The notes beneath the pieces are model-generated. The model did not search any database. It was not told where the DNA came from and saw nothing but the letters and a program-made list of their open reading frames with translations. Made by a program: the position numbers and the translations under genes. From an uncultured Bacteriovoracaceae bacterium (GTDB taxonomy: Bacteria > Bdellovibrionota > UBA2428), in contig CAZIFW010000026.1 in the NCBI GenBank assembly GCA_964538275.1, forward strand, positions 1 to 33,827: a stretch of DNA of 33,827 nt. The letters are read 5' to 3'. Shown piece after piece: positions 484-23,546 of the stretch (positions within the stretch are counted from its first letter, which is position 1; each line of letters starts with the position of its first letter).

Positions 484-1851
484 ATGGAAATAACTGTAAT
501 TATTGTGGTTCTGGTATCATTATTGGCTTCAGCCAAGTTAGTACATTGGGTTTTGTCGCTTCGACGAGTTGTAGCAACAAATGAAGTGCATATTGTTCAA
601 TCTAGCAAAGAAACGAAATCATATGGAAAAGATACCCAGTACGGCAACAGTTACTATGAATGGCCGTCTTGGATTCCGATTTTTGGTATTTCTAAGATCA
701 CTCTGCCTGTTTCAGTTTTCGATTTAGATCTGAACGAGTATGAAGCTTACGATCAAGGACGTCTTCCTTTCGTGGTAGATATAAAATCCTTTTTCAGGAT
801 AACTGATTCTAATGTAGCAGCGCAGAGAGTGGCTTCATTTGATGAGCTTCAGGAGCAATTAAAGGCCATCGTACAGGGCGCTGTAAGAACCATTTTGGCA
901 TCCTCCGATATTGAGTCTATTATGCAAGGGCGCTCAGTTTACGGCGAGCAGTTTACCAAAGAAGTTTCTGAACAACTTTCGAACTGGGGTGTGAATACCG
1001 TAAAAAATATCGAATTGATGGATATTCGTGACTCAAGAGAATCGCACGTCATTCAGAATATTATGGCTAAGAAAAAATCTGCCATCGAAATGGAGTCAAG
1101 GATTGTTGTTGCCGAGAATATTCGGAAAGCAAAGACGGCAGAAATCGAAGCTCAGCGCGAAGTGGATATGCAAAGTCAGCAGGCTTTGGAAGTTGTAGGG
1201 CGTCGCACAGCGGAGAAAGATAAAGCCGTTGGTATTGCAAATGAATTGTCCCAGCAAGAAATTACGGAGCAACAGCGAACAACTAAAGAAAAACAAATGG
1301 CGGTGATAAAAGTTGCTGAAGTAAAACAGGCTGAGATTACAAAAGAAGTGACACTTGTTCAGGCGCAGCAACAAAAAGAAACGGCCGTTATTCGCGCCGA
1401 AGGGGAAAAGCAGCAAACCGTTCTCATTGCAGACGGGAAACTCGAAGAGCAAAAACGATTGGCGGAAGGAATAACGGTTACCGGTGCTGCGCAAGCAGAG
1501 GCAAAAAAACTTATGGAATTAGCGCCTGTTCAAGCGCAGATCGCGCTGGCTGAAGAGATTGGGGATAATAAGGGATATCAGGAATATCTGATCACTATTC
1601 GACAGGTCGAAGCCAACGAGAAAATTGGCATTGAACAAGCGGGCGCTCTGAAGGCGGCTGATATAAAGATTATTACAAATGCGGGACAACCAGTTGCGGG
1701 GATGAATTCGGTTATGGAGTTATTCAGTTCGAGTGGTGGAACTCAGTTGAGCGGTATGCTCGAGGCTTTAGCACAATCCAAAAACGGAAAAGCACTTCTG
1801 GAGAAAGTTGGCGTTGCGCCCTCCGGAGGGGACTCCTCTTCGAAGAAATAG
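484..1851 (+). CDS. Flotillin / SPFH (band-7) domain protein, YqiK-like.
   Basis: There is an N-terminal transmembrane anchor (ITVIIVVLVSLLASA), then an SPFH-like domain, then a long E/A/K/Q-rich coiled-coil (AEIEAQREVDMQSQQALE...) typical of bacterial flotillins. Confidence 0.65.
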   Translation: MEITVIIVVLVSLLASAKLVHWVLSLRRVVATNEVHIVQSSKETKSYGKDTQYGNSYYEWPSWIPIFGISKITLPVSVFDLDLNEYEAYDQGRLPFVVDIKSFFRITDSNVAAQRVASFDELQEQLKAIVQGAVRTILASSDIESIMQGRSVYGEQFTKEVSEQLSNWGVNTVKNIELMDIRDSRESHVIQNIMAKKKSAIEMESRIVVAENIRKAKTAEIEAQREVDMQSQQALEVVGRRTAEKDKAVGIANELSQQEITEQQRTTKEKQMAVIKVAEVKQAEITKEVTLVQAQQQKETAVIRAEGEKQQTVLIADGKLEEQKRLAEGITVTGAAQAEAKKLMELAPVQAQIALAEEIGDNKGYQEYLITIRQVEANEKIGIEQAGALKAADIKIITNAGQPVAGMNSVMELFSSSGGTQLSGMLEALAQSKNGKALLEKVGVAPSGGDSSSKK

Positions 1852-13985: not shown

Positions 13986-14873
13986 ATGAGAAAAAAATTA
14001 TTAAACGGAAGTCTATTAACATTCGCTTTAGTCGCTTCTCCGAGCTTGCGCGCTGAAGAGTCAATGGTTGATAAAGGTCAAAGAAAATTTAATAGCGCAG
14101 TGGATTCGGCTCAGAATGCAGTTGAATCGGGCGTAAACAACGTAAAAACTTTGTATAATAAAGTTCACAATCTTAAAATGCCTGAAGTAGAAATGAGCTC
14201 TGAGGGAGAGCGTCTACTTATGGGTGGAGCACCTGTAGGTGAAGGCAGTGGATCACTCAAGGCATGGGAAGCAGAAACAAAGGCAGTTGTTAAAGCAGGA
14301 TTTTCACTCAAGCTTGCTTTGCTTCTTTACGGTAGAGACAATGCTGACGCTAAGTCACTTTTAAAAATGAATGAACAACTTATGGCTCTTGAAGCAGATC
14401 GATTGAAGCTTGCGGGAACTGTAGATCAGCTTGGTGATCTTGAAACTAAAGTCATGTTCGATTCTGAGTTAAAGCAATATGTTCCTAAAGTTGAAGGTCT
14501 AGATAAAGCAGAACTTGCTAAGTTGAAGCAAATAAACGAAGTAGGTGAAAAATTTAGAAGTATTGAAGCAAGAAAAGTAGATTTAATTGCATCGATTTCT
14601 CAGAAAACGGAAACACTTCAAGTGAAGCTGCAAAATAATCGTATCTGGGCGCTTAAGGGAAGCATAGGCCCTGATGGTAACCTTACTCCAGCTGGTCTTG
14701 AAATTATTAAGTCTAACGGTGCACGCTGGTCGAAAGCCTTTGGTGGCTTAGGCGTTGCGATGACTACTTTAGAATTAGGCGTTGATACCTTCAACGTATT
14801 TCAAAACAAAGAAAGTCCTGGCTTAATTCCTATGCAGTCGACTGTAGAATTAGTGAAAGCACAAGTTAAGTAA
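13986..14873 (+). CDS. Hypothetical secreted protein (295 aa) with predicted coiled-coil.
   Basis: A signal peptide is present (MRKKLLNGSLLTFALVASPSLRA|EES). It has no recognisable family motif. Confidence 0.5.
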   Translation: MRKKLLNGSLLTFALVASPSLRAEESMVDKGQRKFNSAVDSAQNAVESGVNNVKTLYNKVHNLKMPEVEMSSEGERLLMGGAPVGEGSGSLKAWEAETKAVVKAGFSLKLALLLYGRDNADAKSLLKMNEQLMALEADRLKLAGTVDQLGDLETKVMFDSELKQYVPKVEGLDKAELAKLKQINEVGEKFRSIEARKVDLIASISQKTETLQVKLQNNRIWALKGSIGPDGNLTPAGLEIIKSNGARWSKAFGGLGVAMTTLELGVDTFNVFQNKESPGLIPMQSTVELVKAQVK

Positions 14874-14903: not shown

Positions 14904-16268
14904 TTGAGAAAAAATCTTAAAAGATTTTCTCTTGAGCGGCCTCTTCTGTTTTTTGTCTGTATATTTCTTTTTGTTGGCTCTATTGAAGCAAAAAGTTGTC
15001 TTAGTAAATTGAATTGCAGTTCTGCGTTTAACGATGCATGTATTTATACCTATGTGAAAGCAAATCAGTTGTTGAATACGCGCCTTGCTATAGAGCTCAC
15101 TACATTAACAAGAGAAAGTGCGCCAGCGTCGGGTGGGTGGGGTTCCAAGCCACACGTCTCGGGATTGGGAACAAGTTATCAACCCGGCACGGGTGCCCTT
15201 GCGCAAAGTATCCCTATTTTTCGACGTTTTGTAGAAAGAAACAATGGACGATGGACTCCGTTTACTTGGAAAAGCAAAGACGGCACTCGTTTTGACTTCG
15301 ATCCCATTCAGGGAATCTATCAAAAAATCCAGCATCGAATGAATCCAGAAAAGCCTCGTGAATTTACAATGCTTGCTTCCATACTGAATCCCATAGATGG
15401 AACGCGTTTGAGTCTTTATACTCTTACGGCCGCAGTTTTAGGTGGTTCTAGAATGTTAATCGAACACCAAGACGAAGAATCACTTGAGGAGGCTCTTGAT
15501 TGGTATCCTTTCTTAGAGGGAATGAAGCAAGAGCGTGAAAAGCTAGAAAAAGTTTTTGGCGATACAAAAAAATTCAAAAGCTTGGAAGCTGAAATTATAA
15601 AAGACGTTGCGCTTTCGCCTTCGCAATATGATGAAATGATGAGGCCGTATGAAGGCGTTGAGCCAGATTATTCTGCTCTTGCGATAAAATTAGAAAAAGA
15701 ACTTTCCCTGTTAGATTTAAAGGATTTGACCATTTACGAAAAACAATTTGCGCAAATGGCCTATCTCTTAAAAGTAGATAGCGTGTCTCTGGGACTCAAC
15801 CTGAGAGAAAAGAAGGCCTTGGAGCTTCTTCGCTTTGGAATGAGTCGACCTTCGTTTTTCAAACTTAAAAGTATACTTTTTAGCGATGTCTTAACTTACA
15901 AAAAGGCAGGATTTGCGCTCGATAGCAGCGCCGCTTTAGGAGCTGCATCGGCGAATTGGTCGAAGGGTGAGTCCTATCTCCCTAGTTTCGCAGATGCAGC
16001 GGTTTTATCTTTGCTGGGTGAAACTACAAAGGACTTGGTTGAAAAAAATAGAGCTATTCTTCAAGTAAACTCTGAATCAGGACAACAAAGAACGCGAGCA
16101 GCTTGGATTGCTCTTAAAAAAATAGAACTAGATTTTGAGCGACGAAGTTTCGAAAAAATGGGACTTGTTCCTATCATACGAGATAAAGCCAGCGGTGAAC
16201 TTAGGCCCCTTAGTGATGAAGAACACGACGAGATAGAAGCACAAGCTTTGCTCAAAGCACCCCACTAA
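14904..16268 (+). CDS. Hypothetical secreted protein (454 aa).
   Basis: TTG start preceded by AGGGGGT. A signal peptide is present (LLFFVCIFLFVGSIEA|KS). A Cys pair near the N-terminus is reminiscent of the LprI/DUF1311 family, but the match is weak. Confidence 0.45.
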   Translation: MRKNLKRFSLERPLLFFVCIFLFVGSIEAKSCLSKLNCSSAFNDACIYTYVKANQLLNTRLAIELTTLTRESAPASGGWGSKPHVSGLGTSYQPGTGALAQSIPIFRRFVERNNGRWTPFTWKSKDGTRFDFDPIQGIYQKIQHRMNPEKPREFTMLASILNPIDGTRLSLYTLTAAVLGGSRMLIEHQDEESLEEALDWYPFLEGMKQEREKLEKVFGDTKKFKSLEAEIIKDVALSPSQYDEMMRPYEGVEPDYSALAIKLEKELSLLDLKDLTIYEKQFAQMAYLLKVDSVSLGLNLREKKALELLRFGMSRPSFFKLKSILFSDVLTYKKAGFALDSSAALGAASANWSKGESYLPSFADAAVLSLLGETTKDLVEKNRAILQVNSESGQQRTRAAWIALKKIELDFERRSFEKMGLVPIIRDKASGELRPLSDEEHDEIEAQALLKAPH

Positions 16269-16419
16269 GTAATTCTCTAATATAGACTACGGCATGAATT
16301 TGTCGCTTTATTAAGAGCGTCTAGTTTTTAGACGTAACTTTTAATGAAATTGAGCTTTGTCGCTTCTTATTAACACAATCTTAATCATAGCTTTTCAAAA
16401 ACCCGTCGATAATTAAGGC

Positions 16420-19400
16420 ATGGGTAATTTCTCGAGATCCTTTATATATTCTTGTGCATTTTTTGCATTAACTTTAAATGTTGCGTGTACAAAGAAAATA
16501 AAAAAAGCCGCAACGGGACTTACAAATTTAGGACCCACCTCAAACCTAACGTGTATATTTGTTCCAAATTTTAATACCTTTGATGGGGAATCTTTCATTC
16601 AAGGTTTTCCCAATGGCGACCCTTCTTACGAAGTAAACTATTCATGTTCAAAAAACGGTCAGCCCGTTGCAGAAGCTGAATGTCGTAACCCAGCGACAAC
16701 AAGCACTGCAGCCTCGCAGCCCTATACCACTTGTCCTGGCGAAGGAACTTTTATTGTTGCTCAGAATAGTCCATCAGGGATTTATAATATTGCTGTAAAA
16801 GGTAAAGATCCCGAAAATGGTCTATTGAGTGATGCTTATGTTTATAATTTCGCAATTGATCGTGATGCTCCCTATGTAACGGATAACGTTATTGTCCTTT
16901 CAAAGAGTACAAATTCTTTTTCTATAAGTTTTGTAGCTATAGATCCGGAGAGTCCCTCTGCTCCAAATAGTGGAGTTAAAACCACAGAATGTTTGGTTCA
17001 TACTTCTGCTAGTTTGCCCTCAAATCCTGTGTGGCAAAGCTGTAATCCTTCCCAATATGCGGCAACAAATTTAGCTGCTGATACTCAATACTGGGTGCAT
17101 TTTAAGGTTGAAGATAAAGCGGGTAATTTGAGTTTTGATTCGCCAGCGGGAGTTCAGTCTTTTGCTGTTAAAACAAATGTAGATCCAGGAACAACAAACG
17201 GCGGAGGAACGGGACCAGGTTCTCCAGGCGTATGTACTATTCTTTCAAGCTTTCCCAATGGATTCACGCATGATTCAGCTATCAACATCTCTTACGAATG
17301 TCCTAACAACCAGTTAGTTAATAAATGTGTACTTTATAGCCCAGGTCAAACGGTAGCTTCTAATTCAGGCGACCCAGAAAGTGGTTTTCAGAATTGTGAT
17401 GAAACTGCATTTCAGCGCACTATCAGTGTAGATGGTGGCTATCAGTTCTGTGTAGCAGACGGTGCAGCCGGTCCTGTGCGTTGCCAAAGTTTTAGACGTG
17501 ATACAGCAGCGCCTACTGTTGCGATTAATACTCATAATATTACTGCAACGAGTGCAGTTGTTGAGTTTAGTGGCACAGATAGTGGAAGCGGCATCTCTCG
17601 CTTTACCTGTGCGCTTTTAAGGCGTGATGCAAATCCTGCAAATGAAATTGTGTATGATGCTGTTGGAAACATAGCTCCAAGTATAGGGGCTGCATTGGAT
17701 AACGTGTCTGTACCCTGTGGTGCTATTAGTGTGAGCCAAACTTCGGTTACTTTTGGTAGCAGTGTTATTGCCCCAGGAGTTGAGTACGCATTTTATGTAA
17801 GATCTTATGACAACACAGGTTTGAATTCTCCTACGGTCAATCAAACTCTTGTTCAAAGAGGAGCAGATATCTCGTGTGTGATTCTCAATAAAAAGAATGG
17901 TGCATGGAAAAATTCAAGTGCTCAAAGTTATGAATATGAGTGTTCGCAAAACAGTGTGGGTAACGTAAACTTTAAGTGTCAGCTTGAAAATGCTGCAGGA
18001 GGAACGACTCTTGATCTAGCTTGTAACAATCAAGCTCCGCAGTGTTATGCCACTACGAATGAACCTTCGACGGGAACTCTATGTGTTTACCGTGGTAGTT
18101 TTGAAACAGGCGCACGCACAAGCCCATTTGTAGCTTCAGGAGACACCCTTCGCGTAAGAGTGATTGCTGAAGATCGTGCAACATCTGGATTGGTTGTGAG
18201 TTCGGACACTGAAGAAGATACTTTTAAAGTAGATACTCAAAATCCGTTGCTTCCAAATATCAATGTTACTTCTAGCTCTGAAGAAGTGCAGTTAAGTTTC
18301 TCTGCAAATGACCCTCATGCTCCAGCCAGAGGAAGTGGTTTGCGTCCAAATTTAGGAATCAAACTCTATGAAGTGAGTGGAAACACGATTGTACAAGAGC
18401 TTACAGACTACGATGTACAGCTTTTGTGTTCAGGTACTGTTGTAGATCCAAATAACTTCGATATTCGAAATAATTGTAACGATCTTCGTTTTGGTCCTAG
18501 AAACTTTAACGTCGCAAAAATGTACAGAGTTGACTTAACAGTTTTTGACCAAGTCGATAATACTTCAACGGCTTCTTCTTTGTCTTTCCCTGGGCCTAAC
18601 CCAAGTGAGGGGCCTACTTGTTCCATTGGTTTGATCAGTGGATTCTCTGTTGATCCCAACAATCCTACAAATGCTGCAACAACTCTTTCGCGCATTGCTT
18701 GTAACAATCCGCATGAAGAAGCAGGAGTTGAGGATGAGCATACGACAATCGTGAGATGTCGAAAAACAAATCGCGATATAAACGGCAACCCGGTAATTGG
18801 AACTTGGTTTAATTGTGCAGGTTCAAATTTAACTCTTGCAAATGGTGCAACAACTGATTGGAACGTTGTTAACACTGGATTGCCAAACGGAGAAGTTAAA
18901 CTCGAAGTTCAAGGTTGTGATTCAACCTACACGTATCGTTGTGGTCCCATTTCAAGCATGAGCTATTACTATGGTAATGCGCGTGATGGTGGTTGGAGTA
19001 CTGCACAAACAGTTTATCTAAATGGTGATTCACAAACTCAGTATTCTAGAAAAGTTTGTAACAACCCTTCGCCTCTCGCAGGAGGAACCCCTTGTGAACG
19101 TGAGAGAGAACCGTGTCCATCTGTGGTGGGCGCGATTTGCTATGACTGGTTCATGGGACCAGATGTAGATACTTACAAAGCTCAGTATCTAAAACTTAAG
19201 TCGTGTAAGGATCCTGCTGACTTTATTTTTGATAATACCCAAGCGAAGTGTGTTCCAGTCAATCCGCCTGTAGATGGGGTGTGGAGTGATTGGAGTGATT
19301 GGGTAAGTCAGGGTTCATGTTCAGTAACGTGTGGAGGTGGAACACTTTCACAAACACGCACTCGTCAGTGTAATAACCCTGCACCTTCAAATGGCGGAAA

Positions 19401-21153
19401 TCAGTGTTCGGGTGCAAGTACTGAAACTCAAAATATTGCTTGCAACACTCAAAGTTGCACAGGAACTCCCGGTTCTTGGGTTTGGGGTCCTGTATACGCA
19501 GCACCAGCAGATTCTATTTATAATGAACGCAGACGTTGCTCGAATGGAACTCTCTGTGACAATATTTCAGGATGGCATCATTTTAATTCCGGTGGAATTA
19601 AATACGCTCATCGTTGCGTAAGAGGCGGTATACCTATGGGCTCTGGCAGTGCATACACGTGTCGTCCTCCAGTGGGTCGCATTCCAAGTGGTGAATTGTG
19701 TAGTTCAGATGCGGCTATTATTTCTAGAGGCGCACGCGGTTCAATAGCTGGAAAAACTCGTTACACTCAAATTCGCAATGCGGGCGCACCCATTCCAGAA
19801 TGGAGAAACCCATTCTACTCAAATGGAACGGGTATAAATTTGGCAAGTGATGCTCCCACAAGAAAAGTAGCTTGTTTGATGAATGGATATAACGACATTG
19901 TCAGCTATGTGGGCAAACGTTGGGATTCTCCTCAAAACAATGCCGTTCTACTTTGGAAGAATGCAGATAAGAATTTTGATAGAATCAGAGGTTCTGAATT
20001 TAACAACTGGTTAAGCTCAGGCACGTGTGGTGGAAGACTTCACAAAAACTGTGTGGATTATCCATTATGGATTTTCAGAGACACGCCTCCTAATCCCGAT
20101 CCCGTACCTAGAATTGACGGTGGTTGGTCTGCGTGGAGTGATTGGACTTCAGCAAGCGCATGCACGGGCGCATGTGGCGCAGCAACTCGAACTGAACAAA
20201 GAACTCGAACATGTACAGCTCCCGCACCTTCGGGTGGTGGCAGTCCATGTTCAGGACCTGCTGTAGAATCTAGAGCGGCTTCGTGTACTCCAAGCGGATG
20301 TGTTGCTTGTAGTGGAGTGTCTGAATTTACTTTACAAAGAGGATCTTCAAATCCTGTGTATGCAGTGACGGCTGAAATTCCTGCAACAGCTCCACTTGCT
20401 CAGGCGCAACAAGTGACTGTGTCATTAGCAACTTATGAAGGTGCAGATGACATTCGTTTATCAGCTTATGTGAGTGGGGCATGGGCCGATATCTTCGCTC
20501 CAGGAAAAATTAGCACCTGGACGAACGGAGATCCTACAAATGGAACGACTCCTCCGCCTGCTAGTACAATAAGAACATTTACAGCCATGATTCCTCAAGG
20601 AGCAGAAAAAGTTAAATTAGATGCGTCTCGTGCAAGAACACAGTTCTACTTAAAAGTAAGTGGGCTTTGTGGATTCAATGTGGCATCTGCTGTTGTGGCC
20701 AACTCTGCCGTCAATGGTGAATGGTCTGATTGGACAAGCTGGGCAAATATAACGGCTTGTAGCAAATCTTGTGGGGGCGGAACAGTTACTCAAAGTCGCT
20801 CTCGAGTTTGTAACAATCCCATACCTTCTAACGGGGGTGCAAATTGTACAGGATCAGCGACAGAAACTCAGGTTGTAGCTTGTAATACGCAAGCCTGTTG
20901 TAAGCCTAACGGAACGATTGTGGGTCGTGGAGATGTACCAGGCAATCTAAGTCGTGATGAAGTTACCTGTGGCAGGAGTCCTTCTAGTAGAAAAGTAAAT
21001 GGTGGCTCTGCAGGAGCTAATTCTCAGTGTTGCAGTGGCAGAGCGGTTTACAAAAACGGAAGTCGAGCAAGTCGTTGTGGCAATAGTTGTAGTTGGTGTG
21101 GAAGCAACGGTGGATACGATTACGACAACTGGGAAATTGTTTGCTCAAATTAG
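16420..21153 (+). CDS. Giant secreted or lipoprotein (1577 aa), probably an adhesin: fibronectin-III/Ig-like modules, three or four thrombospondin type-1 repeats, and a Cys-rich C-terminus with an RGD motif.
   Basis: The N-terminus has a signal/lipobox-like ALTLNVAC. Three modules begin D-x-D/T-A-P (DRDAPYV, RRDTAAPTV, KVDTQNPLL) and end ...D.AGN.S. Three thrombospondin repeats match WSxWSxW..CSxTCGGG...R.R.CNNP.PSNGG..C.G...E...C...C at nt ~19270-19460, 20116-20300 and 20713-20898. A degenerate fourth sits at ~19010-19130. GRGDVPG sits at ~20925-20945. Confidence 0.7.
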   Translation: MGNFSRSFIYSCAFFALTLNVACTKKIKKAATGLTNLGPTSNLTCIFVPNFNTFDGESFIQGFPNGDPSYEVNYSCSKNGQPVAEAECRNPATTSTAASQPYTTCPGEGTFIVAQNSPSGIYNIAVKGKDPENGLLSDAYVYNFAIDRDAPYVTDNVIVLSKSTNSFSISFVAIDPESPSAPNSGVKTTECLVHTSASLPSNPVWQSCNPSQYAATNLAADTQYWVHFKVEDKAGNLSFDSPAGVQSFAVKTNVDPGTTNGGGTGPGSPGVCTILSSFPNGFTHDSAINISYECPNNQLVNKCVLYSPGQTVASNSGDPESGFQNCDETAFQRTISVDGGYQFCVADGAAGPVRCQSFRRDTAAPTVAINTHNITATSAVVEFSGTDSGSGISRFTCALLRRDANPANEIVYDAVGNIAPSIGAALDNVSVPCGAISVSQTSVTFGSSVIAPGVEYAFYVRSYDNTGLNSPTVNQTLVQRGADISCVILNKKNGAWKNSSAQSYEYECSQNSVGNVNFKCQLENAAGGTTLDLACNNQAPQCYATTNEPSTGTLCVYRGSFETGARTSPFVASGDTLRVRVIAEDRATSGLVVSSDTEEDTFKVDTQNPLLPNINVTSSSEEVQLSFSANDPHAPARGSGLRPNLGIKLYEVSGNTIVQELTDYDVQLLCSGTVVDPNNFDIRNNCNDLRFGPRNFNVAKMYRVDLTVFDQVDNTSTASSLSFPGPNPSEGPTCSIGLISGFSVDPNNPTNAATTLSRIACNNPHEEAGVEDEHTTIVRCRKTNRDINGNPVIGTWFNCAGSNLTLANGATTDWNVVNTGLPNGEVKLEVQGCDSTYTYRCGPISSMSYYYGNARDGGWSTAQTVYLNGDSQTQYSRKVCNNPSPLAGGTPCEREREPCPSVVGAICYDWFMGPDVDTYKAQYLKLKSCKDPADFIFDNTQAKCVPVNPPVDGVWSDWSDWVSQGSCSVTCGGGTLSQTRTRQCNNPAPSNGGNQCSGASTETQNIACNTQSCTGTPGSWVWGPVYAAPADSIYNERRRCSNGTLCDNISGWHHFNSGGIKYAHRCVRGGIPMGSGSAYTCRPPVGRIPSGELCSSDAAIISRGARGSIAGKTRYTQIRNAGAPIPEWRNPFYSNGTGINLASDAPTRKVACLMNGYNDIVSYVGKRWDSPQNNAVLLWKNADKNFDRIRGSEFNNWLSSGTCGGRLHKNCVDYPLWIFRDTPPNPDPVPRIDGGWSAWSDWTSASACTGACGAATRTEQRTRTCTAPAPSGGGSPCSGPAVESRAASCTPSGCVACSGVSEFTLQRGSSNPVYAVTAEIPATAPLAQAQQVTVSLATYEGADDIRLSAYVSGAWADIFAPGKISTWTNGDPTNGTTPPPASTIRTFTAMIPQGAEKVKLDASRARTQFYLKVSGLCGFNVASAVVANSAVNGEWSDWTSWANITACSKSCGGGTVTQSRSRVCNNPIPSNGGANCTGSATETQVVACNTQACCKPNGTIVGRGDVPGNLSRDEVTCGRSPSSRKVNGGSAGANSQCCSGRAVYKNGSRASRCGNSCSWCGSNGGYDYDNWEIVCSN

Positions 21154-21161
21154 CATTGATA

Positions 21162-21200
21162 AAAGCTACTTTGGAATAGAATTTATTCTGAGGTAGCTTT
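21162..21200. terminator. Compound hairpin between or overlapping convergent gene ends, a possible bidirectional terminator.
   Basis: AAAGCTAC...GTAGCTTT forms an 8-bp outer stem enclosing GAATA-GAATT-TATTC. It overlaps the last codons of the minus-strand gene. Confidence 0.3.
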
Positions 21201-23546
21201 AGAAATTTGATCCAGTCTTTTTATTTCTTCTTTTAAGTTTTCAAATTCCGTGAAAGGCAATGCACCACGATCAAGAAAACGAATTTTTTTATTTTTGTCG
21301 ATCACATAGGTGCCGTGAAGGGGCAGTTCTTCGAAGTCGTCGAAAGATCTATATTTTTTAAATACATTCATTTGACTATCACTTAAGAGATCAAATTTTA
21401 GCCGAGTTTCTTCAGTAGAAAATTCAAGAGCTGTTGCAAGATCGCTTTCAGAATCTGTAGTGATTCCAACTATTTTATATCCAAGCTTTTGAAAACGTTC
21501 GCTTTGAGCATTTAATTCCTGAAGTTGTTCATTACAACGTGGACAGGAACCACCTAATACAAAAACTAAAAGCACACCTTTATTAGATTCTTTTAAAATT
21601 GAGTCGAGTGAGAGTGTTTTAGCAGCGGCATTCTTGAGGATAAAGTCGGGCGCTAAAGGTTGTGGAAATTTTTCTCCAGTAAAAGAAGTGGGTACTTTGA
21701 GTAAGAGTTCTCTTGGAGTGTGAACGGCTCTCCAGTCGTTTGGTATACTCTCGCCCAAGAGTTTCAATACTTCTTCTCCAAGTTTATAATATTCGGAGTT
21801 TTTGTCTAAATATGCACCCATAGTGCGACATTTTTTAAAGGTTTCAAAGGCAGCTTCTTGCTTGAGTTGCGAAGCTTGTGCGTGCGCAAGCTCTAAATAT
21901 TTTGAAATATCAGCATAGGGATCAGAACTTAAGTCTCCTAAAACTTCTTCTGCTTTTTCTGGAAGATTAAGTGTTCGGTAAAATTTTGCAAAGGTTGAAC
22001 GAGATAATATGTAATCAGCGTCTTGGTTAAGTTTACGCAATTCTTCGACATTCTCGGGTGATTCTTCGCCATTTTCCCAGCGTTTTATAAGATCTAGGAT
22101 TTTTTCGAGTTTAGCAGCTTGAGGTGCAAGCGAAGGGTTTTGAGATGCAAGATCATGCAACAGGACTCGATACTTAAAGCGCTCTACATCTTCGCCCACA
22201 ACAGTATAGCTATAAGCAAGTTGGTAAAAAAGTTTAAGGATGCGGATTTTATCTTTAAACTTACGAGCATCCGTAGGGAGATATCCTTGTTTTTCTGCTT
22301 CAACTAAAATTTCATGATTTCCATACGTGTTTGCAGTGGTAAACAGCAGATCAAGGCCAGCGATGTAATTTGAGTGATAAGTGCCCTCTTGCTCTAAAGG
22401 GTTGTTGTATTTGGAGTGAAGGGGGATTTCTAAGAGACCTTTTGCGACTTGTGCAGATTTTTTATATTTCCCAAGTCCAAGAAGATTGAGGCCCCAAAAA
22501 TGTTGATTGTGTCCATAATTATGAACCACGTAGGGAAATTCCATTTGTTTGTTTTGTTGTGTTTGATCAATGTATGCTGCACGCAAATATTGTTCATCAC
22601 TTTCGAAAAACTTCCCTATTTGTGAGTAAATGTGTGATCCCATGTGCCACATGTGAGCCGAGTTTATAAAAGAAGGTCCAATGTGTTGTGCTGAATCCAA
22701 TGCACGTTTTTCATTTTTACTATCGTTCCACAAGTGGATACGAGCATGGTGGGCGGGATGCATGGGTTCTTTTTCAAAAATTTCTTGAAAAAGTTTTTCT
22801 ATTTTTTCTTGTGTATATCCTAGATTTTCTATGTGACCTAGATCCCAGATAAAGAGCGCGCCCAGTGCTTTGAGATCAAGCTCATTCGGATTTTCTTCTA
22901 CAAGTTGAAGCCACGCTTTAACAAAAAACTTTTGATTCTCGGAATCTTCGGGATTTTTTAAAAAACTCAGTAAAATATTCTGTAAACGTATTTCGAGCTT
23001 ACTAAGTTTTAAATTGAGGTGACGAGTGAGTTCGATGGAGAGTTTTGTGAACTTGTATCCACGTTCATAGTTTCCAACGCCAAAAATAATCTGCGAAAGA
23101 CCCGCACCCCAAAGGGCCATAGTGCAATTGGAATCTTGGTGAAAAGCGAGGCGAAAATATCTTTCGGCCTCAACAGTTTCAAATGCGTGCATGTAGGCAA
23201 AAGCAAAATTTATGGATTTTAAAGCATCAGCGTTGCAAGATTGAATGGGGCTTTTGAGGGAGACGGTTAACGGAGGGAGATTGAGTGGGAATTGGCGAGG
23301 TCCGTAATCAAAAACTTGCCCGCGTTTTGAGGCTCCGGGGTGGGAGGCTTCATTTTTCAAGTAGGCGGCAAGTACATCTTCTCTTGCGTCTCCGCTTTCT
23401 TTGCTCATGGCGCTCATGCCGCCATTGCTTCCACCCATAGAGGGCATATTTGCGGCTTCGTGACCCTCGTGAGAGGGGCCACAAGAAACTAAAAAGAGAA
23501 CAAGAATTGTTGTAAGTAATTTAGGAAATGCACCGGAATTGAACAC
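21183..23546 (-). CDS. Lipoprotein (787 aa) with a Met/His-rich N-terminal segment and a C-terminal thioredoxin-fold (redoxin / AhpC-TSA / TlpA-like) domain carrying a CPRC motif.
   Basis: GTG start. A lipobox is present (LVLFLVSC). MPSMGGSNGGMSAMS resembles a metal-binding Met motif. The C-terminus reads VLLVFVLGGSCPRCNEQLQEL...IVGITTDSESDL...HGTYVIDKNKKIRFLD, which looks like a redoxin fold. Confidence 0.55.
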   Translation of the reverse strand: MFNSGAFPKLLTTILVLFLVSCGPSHEGHEAANMPSMGGSNGGMSAMSKESGDAREDVLAAYLKNEASHPGASKRGQVFDYGPRQFPLNLPPLTVSLKSPIQSCNADALKSINFAFAYMHAFETVEAERYFRLAFHQDSNCTMALWGAGLSQIIFGVGNYERGYKFTKLSIELTRHLNLKLSKLEIRLQNILLSFLKNPEDSENQKFFVKAWLQLVEENPNELDLKALGALFIWDLGHIENLGYTQEKIEKLFQEIFEKEPMHPAHHARIHLWNDSKNEKRALDSAQHIGPSFINSAHMWHMGSHIYSQIGKFFESDEQYLRAAYIDQTQQNKQMEFPYVVHNYGHNQHFWGLNLLGLGKYKKSAQVAKGLLEIPLHSKYNNPLEQEGTYHSNYIAGLDLLFTTANTYGNHEILVEAEKQGYLPTDARKFKDKIRILKLFYQLAYSYTVVGEDVERFKYRVLLHDLASQNPSLAPQAAKLEKILDLIKRWENGEESPENVEELRKLNQDADYILSRSTFAKFYRTLNLPEKAEEVLGDLSSDPYADISKYLELAHAQASQLKQEAAFETFKKCRTMGAYLDKNSEYYKLGEEVLKLLGESIPNDWRAVHTPRELLLKVPTSFTGEKFPQPLAPDFILKNAAAKTLSLDSILKESNKGVLLVFVLGGSCPRCNEQLQELNAQSERFQKLGYKIVGITTDSESDLATALEFSTEETRLKFDLLSDSQMNVFKKYRSFDDFEELPLHGTYVIDKNKKIRFLDRGALPFTEFENLKEEIKRLDQISKATSE

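Follow-up and report, generated by a model that had tools for sequence, protein, structure and literature searches.

Thrombospondin type-1 repeats with their own cysteine spacing in a large exported protein of an uncultured Bdellovibrionota bacterium

Thrombospondin type-1 repeats (TSRs) are textbook adhesion modules of animals and apicomplexans, where they occur in thrombospondin, properdin, the ADAMTS proteins and TRAP/CSP. We analysed a stretch of DNA of 33,827 nucleotides (nt) from an uncultured Bacteriovoracaceae bacterium (contig CAZIFW010000026.1 of assembly GCA_964538275.1; hereafter the window), in which a single gene, called the TSR gene below, encodes a large cysteine-rich protein with three such repeats. 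The repeats are like the group 1 TSRs of eukaryotes (TSR2 and TSR3 of thrombospondin-1 (TSP-1), properdin, UNC5, ADAMTS13 and BAI1; Pfam family PF00090) in their WxxWxxW, CSxTCGGG, RxR and CNNPxPxxGGxxC motifs and in the order of their six cysteines, and have about 50% identity to TSR3 of human TSP-1 (independent E-value (i-E) about 1e-10). They differ from the eukaryotic group in that the bacterial family has three constant insertions and in that unrelated bacterial modules separate the repeats, which do not form tandem arrays. The host being bacterial, the eukaryotic machinery for C-mannosylation and O-fucosylation is presumably not to be expected in it.

In the literature that we searched, TSP1 is treated as an animal and apicomplexan domain (PMC3417536), and no description of prokaryotic type-1 repeats was found there. 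Thrombospondin type 3 repeats have been described in bacteria, in OmpA-family proteins and giant proteins of Omnitrophota (bioRxiv 10.1101/2023.11.21.568195); these share a name and an extracellular location with the type-1 repeats, but are a different, unrelated repeat that binds calcium and is common among bacteria. The mosaic adhesive trimer (MAT) fibres of Bdellovibrio bacteriovorus, such as Bd2133 (PDB 8ok3/8ond), carry mosaic adhesive tips, and one of these fibres binds prey glycans (PMC10769870). They offer a functional analogy in the design of a mosaic-tip surface adhesin; membership of the window protein in the MAT fibre superfamily was not supported. The domain call as such is not new, since databases already flag PF00090 on these proteins. 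What is new is that a Bdellovibrionota lineage natively keeps a near-canonical yet distinct TSR subtype, which also occurs on prokaryotic pilins and lipoproteins and comes paired with a domain that lacks annotation and that we refer to as the X domain.

The initial annotation of the window had placed three TSRs and a degenerate fourth copy in this gene, and the following features agree with that placement:

16420..21153, forward strand: complete, uninterrupted coding sequence of 1577 amino acids (aa), from the listing of open reading frames (ORFs)
18976..19140, forward strand: TSR0, a truncated, degenerate TSR-like module (GGW...YSRKVCNNPSPLAGGTPC) found with hhalign, without a Pfam match
19270..19458, forward strand: TSR1, aa 951-1013; 30.9 bits against Pfam TSP_1 when scanned alone
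20113..20301, forward strand: TSR2, aa 1232-1294, with WSAWSDW, CTGACGAA, QRTRTC and CTAPAPSGGG; 78.9 bits against a hidden Markov model (HMM) of the family TSRs
20710..20898, forward strand: TSR3, aa 1431-1493, with WSDWTSW, CSKSCGGG, SRSR and CNNPIPSNGG; 30.6 bits against Pfam when scanned alone, 95.5 bits against the family HMM

The WSxW[ST]xW ladders start at nt 19282, 20125 and 20722 (aa 955, 1236 and 1435), and the ladder and arginine pairs, read from the sequence, are WSDWSDW/TRTR in TSR1, WSAWSDW/QRTR in TSR2 and WSDWTSW/SRSR in TSR3. The whole protein matched TSP_1 (PF00090, cutoff 21.6 bits) with 48 bits (E=1.4e-12) over three stretches. Three significant TSP_1 matches had been expected; this held for the three stretches of the whole-protein scan and for TSR1 and TSR3 scanned alone, but not for TSR2 alone, the most divergent of the three copies, which scored 16.8 bits and so fell under the cutoff. 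Comparison of TSR1 with PDB by phmmer gave human TSP-1 TSR2/TSR3 (7yyk, 3r6b, 1lsl) at i-E values of 2e-9 to 7e-11, in alignments that held the Trp ladder, CSVTCGGG, RxR, CNNPxPxxGG and six of six cysteines in register, followed in the match list by properdin, UNC5, ADAMTS13, BAI1 and complement C6-C8. Because the Pfam matches are joined by PDB alignments with all six cysteines in register, the repeats are to be seen as homologous rather than as products of chance or convergence, and on this sequence evidence the three are bona fide TSRs related by descent to the eukaryotic domain.

Models made with AlphaFold 2 (AF2) from multiple sequence alignments (MSAs) of only 3 sequences had predicted local distance difference test (pLDDT) values of 80-84 for TSR2, 56-68 for TSR1 and 43-52 for TSR3. 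The top PDB matches of TSR2 in Foldseek were all TSR proteins (3r6b, 7yyk, 1lsl and 7r84; probability 0.99-1.0), yet with E-values of at least 2e-3. TSR1 (CSVTCG) and TSR3 (CSKSCG) have the O-fucosylation-type motif CxxS/TCxxG, which TSR2 (CTGACG) lacks. As for the degenerate fourth copy, a profile of TSR0 (aa ~870-902) built from five orthologues matched the family TSR profile over 33 central columns (hhalign 96.4%, E=1.4e-9), which correspond to the B strand, the CNNPxPxxGG loop and the next cysteine, and the family TSR HMM recognized TSR0 with an i-E of 0.0016. TSR0 was present in all five orthologues, including one that has no canonical TSR, and its alignment indicates a relative of the TSRs that is truncated, the CSxTCG part having been lost.

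That the six cysteines of each repeat stand at canonical spacing, as had been claimed, was true of their order and register but only in part of the spacing itself. Counting residues from the ladder to the first cysteine and then between successive cysteines (ladder-C1 / C1-C2 / C2-C3 / C3-C4 / C4-C5 / C5-C6), we found 5/3/12/11/11/4 in each of the family's canonical TSRs (7/7), the corresponding counts being 2/3/10/11/9/4 in TSR2/3 of human TSP-1 and in exon-like eukaryotic sequences. Relative to TSP-1, the family TSRs thus have three small insertions of +3/+2/+2 residues; these are loop and strand-end insertions that the profile tolerates, and they mark a subtype while keeping its membership in TSP_1. 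A DNA pattern encoding this spacing matched exactly at the TSRs of the window (n=3) and of the related loci L001 (n=3) and L002 (n=2), and the same pattern matched 18 loci in a metagenome collection, several of them clearly prokaryotic. Scored with the family HMM, the TSRs of two of these prokaryotic loci were at the top (L016, 73-83 bits; L021, 67-80 bits), compared with 54-65 bits for eukaryotic exons of canonical spacing. Eight other loci from the metagenome pattern scan, low in GC, poor in genes and with one TSR per short ORF, look eukaryotic; reading the eukaryotic-looking loci with UGA recoded gave no long ORFs and no gene-dense bacterial loci. We considered and rejected the +3/+2/+2 spacing as a marker specific to Bdellovibrionota or to prokaryotes, the pattern having also matched probably eukaryotic contigs.

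The prokaryotic carriers of type-1 repeats (L016, L012, L023, L014, L021, L009 and the protein P0028) are all exported surface or appendage proteins, as the window protein appears to be; the spacing subtype is found in the loci from L012 to L023, and P0028 has the X domain in common with the window protein. They differ from it in starting with N_methyl/T2SSG, with a class-III-signal-like sequence or as a short lipoprotein, instead of with a 900-aa stalk, and in that their TSRs are often in tandem. L016 (7988-13178, reverse strand; JGI Ga0206855; also L012) holds PilM and tandem pseudopilin genes (N_methyl + T2SSG + TSP_1), with two full-length ORFs of three TSRs each and a third ORF cut at the end of the locus, in the setting of a PilM/N/O-type pilus or type II secretion system (T2SS) operon. 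This suggests TSR-tipped pili in the bacterium behind L016/L012. The product of L023 (2249-3763, reverse strand) has an FN3 module and two TSRs (fn3 + TSP_1) behind the N-terminus QAAMEFLMTYGWAIMV, and that of L014 (2136-4022, forward strand) has, by eye, a similar layout plus a long Gly-rich tail; this N-terminus appears to resemble an archaeal class III (pilin-type) signal, and the two are possibly archaeal TSR proteins. L021 codes for a lipoprotein that bears three TSRs and lies beside a DUF11/GLUG giant. In L009 (5068-7278; Candidatus Omnitrophota metagenome-assembled genome (MAG) JADFYF010000059.1), a 736-aa protein has one TSR with 45% identity to TSR1, a prepilin-like N-terminus (N_methyl E=0.004, under the cutoff) and numerous other Cys-rich repeats; L009 has another TSR-like ORF at 909-2504.

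Besides the pilin-like Omnitrophota protein of L009, the scan with TSR1 of species-representative genomes turned up three giants, orthologous to one another and 2198-2335 aa long, in Bdellovibrionales MAGs (L006 3445-10041, L007 3403-10410 and L008 3424-10278), each with 7-8 divergent TSR-like units and with immunoglobulin (Ig)-like repeats of the HYDIN/VesB/ASH type. These giants are like the window protein in being large exported proteins, by their record titles from the same order-level group, that combine Ig-like repeats and TSR-like units, and in the 5-residue spacer after the ladder. They are not orthologous to it, however, and differ in the C2-C3 and C5-C6 spacing, in the type of their Ig repeats, and in having units that diverge too far to match PF00090 (TSP1_CFP_C alone was matched, with 25 bits, under its cutoff). 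A fibrinogen-related start of these giants was considered and is no more than a lead: Pfam gave no support, and the PDB matches, although fibrinogen-related in 16/16 cases, were marginal (best E=0.0035, over the first ~55 residues). The C-terminus of the L007 protein has a GH115_C-like domain. The initial view of TSRs as rare in bacteria therefore stands as far as sparseness goes, but not as uniqueness, given the same subtype on pseudopilins, pilin-like proteins, lipoproteins and P0028, and divergent units in the Bdellovibrionales giants.

A protein search with TSR1 only returned 17 candidates, all of them short ORFs resembling eukaryotic exons, and so does not amount to a bacterial census. 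Short single-TSR "proteins" in the metagenome protein database look like eukaryotic exons miscalled as prokaryotic ORFs. Single-TSR short ORFs on low-GC, gene-poor contigs were seen in L003, L004, L010, L011, L013, L017, L020, L022, L025 and L027; L004 (7349-9248) has three TSR ORFs 600-1000 bp apart with a TIL domain nearby, and some of these exon-like TSRs share the 5/3/12/11 spacing with the bacterial subtype. No TSR1-like sequence was found in the annotated plasmid and phage collections.

Searching 5.8 billion proteins with the full protein identified four relatives; a search with the family profile added no further members, and a full-protein scan of the species-representative genomes found none. 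The relatives are as follows:

P0002: 86% identity over the full length
P0003: 57% identity, from a Bdellovibrionota bacterium MAG (NCBI label)
P0004: 43% identity, with two tandem TSRs at the C-terminus
P0005: 44% identity, 918 aa, ending right after TSR0

P0003 is the nearest named relative, and its origin from a Bdellovibrionota MAG agrees with the predatory-bacterium hallmarks that the initial annotation had seen in the genome. The absence of canonical TSRs from P0005 is real, the next gene in its locus (L005) beginning 8 nt past its stop. All five orthologues (those of the window, L001, L002, L005 and the P0004 contig) share one chromosomal slot, bounded upstream by (rpsP-)trmD-rplS-rnhB-UPF0102 and downstream, where the contig reaches that far, by an AhpC/TSA-like gene and/or DJ-1, yceD, rpmF and fabH-fabD-fabG-acpP-fabF. 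The comparisons with related genomes and with neighbouring genes that the initial annotation had called for thus yielded four relatives in a shared slot and a TSR gene indistinguishable from its surroundings: its GC content at third codon positions (GC3) was 0.278 (neighbours, 0.26-0.48; TSR segments alone, 0.25-0.29), and its synonymous codon-usage distance to the rest of the window, 0.102, was among the lowest of the 25 ORFs. Between the TSR copies there were no long DNA repeats, only stretches of ~30 nt at 69-76% identity. The ratio of nonsynonymous to synonymous substitution rates (dN/dS) relative to the P0002 gene was 0.078 overall, 0.07 for TSR1 and 0.107 for TSR2, with dS at ~1 and so near saturation and the value for TSR3 undefined. 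The gene has long been part of this housekeeping neighbourhood, is inherited vertically and is under purifying selection, and because of the common slot, the native GC3 and codon usage and the low dN/dS, its TSRs are to be regarded as long-resident functional parts. Within the family, the N-terminal ~900 aa form a conserved core and the TSR-bearing C-terminal part varies, with 0-3 canonical TSRs; by alignment, the head holds 0, 2, 2+1 or 3 TSRs, and the X domain and the jelly-roll are variably present.

The remaining parts of the protein are these:

16420..16488, forward strand: signal peptide ending in an invariant cysteine (Cys23) followed by [TS]KK, a probable lipoprotein anchor (alignment)
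16531..18975, forward strand: stalk of alternating A (Cys-rich) and B (FN3/Ig-like) modules (hhalign, Pfam, alignment)
aa 38-146, 266-360, 483-604 and 728-852, forward strand: Cys-rich modules A1-A4, of marginal mutual similarity (E 0.003-0.006)
aa 147-262, 361-482 and 605-727, forward strand: modules B1-B3, opening with D-x-x-(A)P (hhalign internal repeats)
19459..20112, forward strand: X module of 225 aa, a Cys-rich spacer and then the X domain (HMMER)
19681-20082, forward strand: core of the X domain, aa ~1088-1221 (~130 aa), the recurring part of the HMMER matches
20317..20709, forward strand: beta-jelly-roll module, aa ~1300-1430, found only in the window protein and P0002
20899..21150, forward strand: Cys-rich C-terminal tail of 84 aa with 12 Cys, conserved in P0002 and P0003 (alignment)
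20926-20934, forward strand: RGD in the tail, aa 1503-1505, read from the sequence

The protein as a whole has 72 Cys and a high content of Ser, Gly, Ala, Thr and Asn, and its N-terminus (MGNFSR...) is kept among the orthologues in the family alignment. The PS51257-type lipobox rule was passed by P0003, P0005 and P0027 (a further protein, described below) and failed by the window protein and P0002 (Asn at -3) and by P0004, so that lipid anchoring of the window protein is probable by analogy with its orthologues. The initial annotation had listed three D-x-AP/FN3-like modules in the stalk. These are real repeats, B1 and B3 matching each other over their full length (hhalign 94.5%, E=8e-8) and B2 and B3 over the full length more weakly (E=0.02), but their FN3/Ig identity is sub-threshold in this protein, where every Ig-type match lay below its cutoff (Big_3_2 E=0.005, Big_13 E=0.046, fn3 E=0.048). 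Among 6 family members, fn3 was matched in 4/6 (best E 9e-7) and Big_13 in 4/6 (best E 2e-6), with matches to Big_3 too. The Cys columns of the stalk are invariant in the 5 orthologues, and a PDB sequence search found no relative of the stalk with a solved structure.

The X domain has the motif C.MNGY...W.SP.NN.V..W...FNN.L...C.G.L...C...WIF[KR]K. An exhaustive HMMER search with aa 1014-1238 gave 46 matches in 1.84 billion cluster representatives (P0027-P0071 among them), nearly always with the domain at the extreme C-terminus and mostly in lipoprotein-like proteins of ~200 aa. P0028 combines a prepilin N_methyl, TSP_1 (26.8 bits) and, after the TSR, an X domain, and P0027 has stalk-type modules, a TSR0-like segment (by eye) and a full X module. 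The X domain was also seen fused to TIG, DUF11 and pilin+TSR proteins, and many of the small X-domain lipoproteins have a conserved S-x-F-S/A-G-G directly after the lipobox Cys. It has no Pfam family and no PDB relative, and AF2 models of the X module from a 3-sequence MSA had a pLDDT of 25-30, at which no fold could be assigned; an EGF-like identity for its spacer was discarded, the PDB match being weak (E=0.16). The jelly-roll is similar to modules with roles in adhesion or carbohydrate binding, among them the tip of a Bdellovibrio fibre, and had no significant PDB sequence match. For the tail, likewise, neither Pfam nor a PDB sequence search gave a match, and its pLDDT was 21-31 from a 3-sequence MSA. 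The RGD in the tail had been taken for an integrin-type motif. At that column P0002 also has RGD, P0003 has SGD and the tail of P0004 is non-alignable; by chance 0.33 RGD would be expected per protein, with a probability of 0.28 of at least one. Because of the SGD in P0003 and this chance probability, the motif is to be disregarded.

Our preferred reading, which we hold to be fairly probable, is that the TSR gene encodes an exported and probably lipid-anchored, disulfide-rich modular surface adhesin made of a stalk and a TSR binding head; the adhesive role itself is the most reasonable inference. The signal peptide and invariant cysteine would direct export and lipid anchoring to the envelope. 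Because 70 Cys follow the lipobox Cys, oxidative folding is expected to take place outside the cytoplasm, and the disulfides would be made in the periplasm. The N-terminal modules may then act as a stalk that projects the C-terminal head (TSR1, X domain, TSR2, jelly-roll, TSR3 and Cys-rich tail) away from the cell envelope, and the conserved stalk of ~900 aa with its variable set of C-terminal modules fits a design of conserved stalk and variable head. Eukaryotic TSRs such as those of TSP-1, properdin and TRAP/CSP bind glycosaminoglycans and proteins through a face of layered Trp and Arg. Here, the corresponding ladder face would act with the X and jelly-roll modules to bind a surface polymer of another cell (prey or host) or a substrate, the putative ligand most plausibly being an anionic glycan or protein. 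The pseudopilins, pilin-like proteins and lipoproteins that carry the subtype provide an adhesive context for it.

Several points weigh against this adhesin. The predatory lifestyle of this bacterium is assumed from phylum-level relatives only. The lipobox of the window protein, with its Asn at -3, fails a strict PROSITE-type rule, and the FN3/Ig assignments of the stalk, sub-threshold here, are supported through orthologues only. With MSAs of only 3 sequences, the predicted structures of the X module, TSR1, TSR3 and the tail were of poor quality, and the match of the jelly-roll is a generic one. Few sequences (five orthologues and P0027) underlie the notion of a variable head.

An extension of the adhesin reading, which we put forward tentatively and consider doubtful, is that there exists a coherent prokaryotic TSR subtype (W-x2-W-x8-C-x3-C-x12-C-x11-C-x11-C-x4-C) that serves as a tip-adhesion module on pseudopilins of the T2SS and type IV pilus (T4P) type, archaeal-type pilin-like proteins, lipoproteins and the stalk adhesins of Bdellovibrionota, often paired with the X domain. 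The TSR would then be ancient and shared, or exchanged between domains long ago, with a possibly prokaryotic origin, and the module might act in cell-to-cell attachment in predatory or episymbiotic lifestyles. If this were true, the TSR would not be a purely eukaryotic invention. The repeats described here reopen the question of the origin of the TSR fold, offer a tractable system, in a bacterium, for studying the ligands of TSRs that are not glycosylated, and provide candidate attachment proteins for uncultured Bdellovibrionota-type bacteria, in which recognition of prey or host is poorly understood; they also draw attention to the X domain, which has no annotation, is known from 46 cluster representatives and is found together with TSRs.

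The same architecture could instead be directed at a eukaryotic target, such as the extracellular matrix of a host, a grazing protist or the surface of an animal or alga, with TSRs by which a host-associated bacterium would bind or mimic matrix. Eukaryotic TSRs mediate interactions with matrix and cell surfaces, the CSVTCG sequence is kept in TSR1, and the subtype also occurs on probably eukaryotic low-GC contigs. However, we saw no evidence of host association within the window, the RGD is not conserved, and the other prokaryotic carriers come from free environmental metagenomes, which argues for a general adhesive module over mimicry of a host. We regard a eukaryotic target as unlikely on these grounds. 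Less likely again, and in our judgment improbable, is a structural protein of the envelope or matrix (surface layer, cyst wall or biofilm scaffold) rather than a specific adhesin. Such a role would suit a large, disulfide-rich and repetitive protein without a catalytic domain, encoded by a conserved gene of a housekeeping locus that is under strong purifying selection throughout, but a content of 0-3 TSRs that changes between close lineages is more typical of ligand-facing tips, and the same modules occur on pilins.

Horizontal acquisition had been raised by the initial annotation, and a recent transfer of the TSR cassette from an animal or protist, yielding a eukaryote-like mimic, would account for the mean identities that we measured: the window-family TSRs have 52% identity to eukaryotic TSRs, about as much as among themselves (49%), compared with 41% to the TSR-like repeats of the other Bdellovibrionales giants, and their best non-family matches in a word index were probable animal exons at 48-68% identity. 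Against a transfer, orthologues down to 43% identity have TSRs at equivalent positions in the slot kept in all five orthologues, GC3 and codon usage are like those of the neighbours, dN/dS is 0.07-0.11 for TSR1 and TSR2, and the non-animal spacing 5/3/12/11/11/4 is common to prokaryotic pilin and lipoprotein TSRs (67-83 bits). A recent acquisition is therefore disfavoured by these data and strikes us as quite improbable; an ancient transfer between domains, in one direction or the other, is conceivable. Convergence upon a Cys-rich repeat that merely resembles TSRs, another origin suggested at the outset, is conceivable for a short domain rich in Cys, Gly and Trp, in which composition could produce a resemblance of motifs, but is very hard to reconcile with the strength of the homology (Pfam E=1.4e-12; ~50% identity to human TSP-1 at i-E ~1e-10, with the landmarks in register). 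An assembly chimera or eukaryotic contamination, which the origin of the window as a single 33.8-kb MAG-type contig might bring to mind, is scarcely credible for a continuous intron-free ORF between bacterial housekeeping genes, with native codon usage and no repeat collapse, whose architecture was found independently in at least 3 other assemblies (JGI 3300015615, GCA_041391385.1 and JGI 3300050046).

The TSR gene appears to be its own transcription unit: the upstream gene is followed by a terminator-like hairpin (16304-16335), and a weak AAGG stands immediately 5' of the ATG. A Pfam scan found no catalytic domain in the 1577-aa protein, and neither Rfam families nor tRNAs were found in the window. 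The description of the product as giant was generous for this length, whereas that of a large exported Cys-rich multidomain protein is apt. Directly upstream lie two genes without a Pfam match (13986-14873 and 14904-16268, forward strand), the second of which opens with a signal-peptide-like N-terminus; L001 has counterparts of similar size (293 and 440 aa) at the same position, and L002 has none. Downstream, a convergent gene (21183-23546, reverse strand) encodes a protein of 787 aa whose N-terminus is like that of a lipoprotein (LVSCGPS) and whose C-terminal part is an AhpC/TSA/Redoxin thioredoxin-fold domain with a CPRC motif. In the window, L001 and L005, though not in L002, this gene is next to the TSR gene, and we speculate that its product is a periplasmic thiol-disulfide oxidoreductase that helps to fold the 72-Cys protein.

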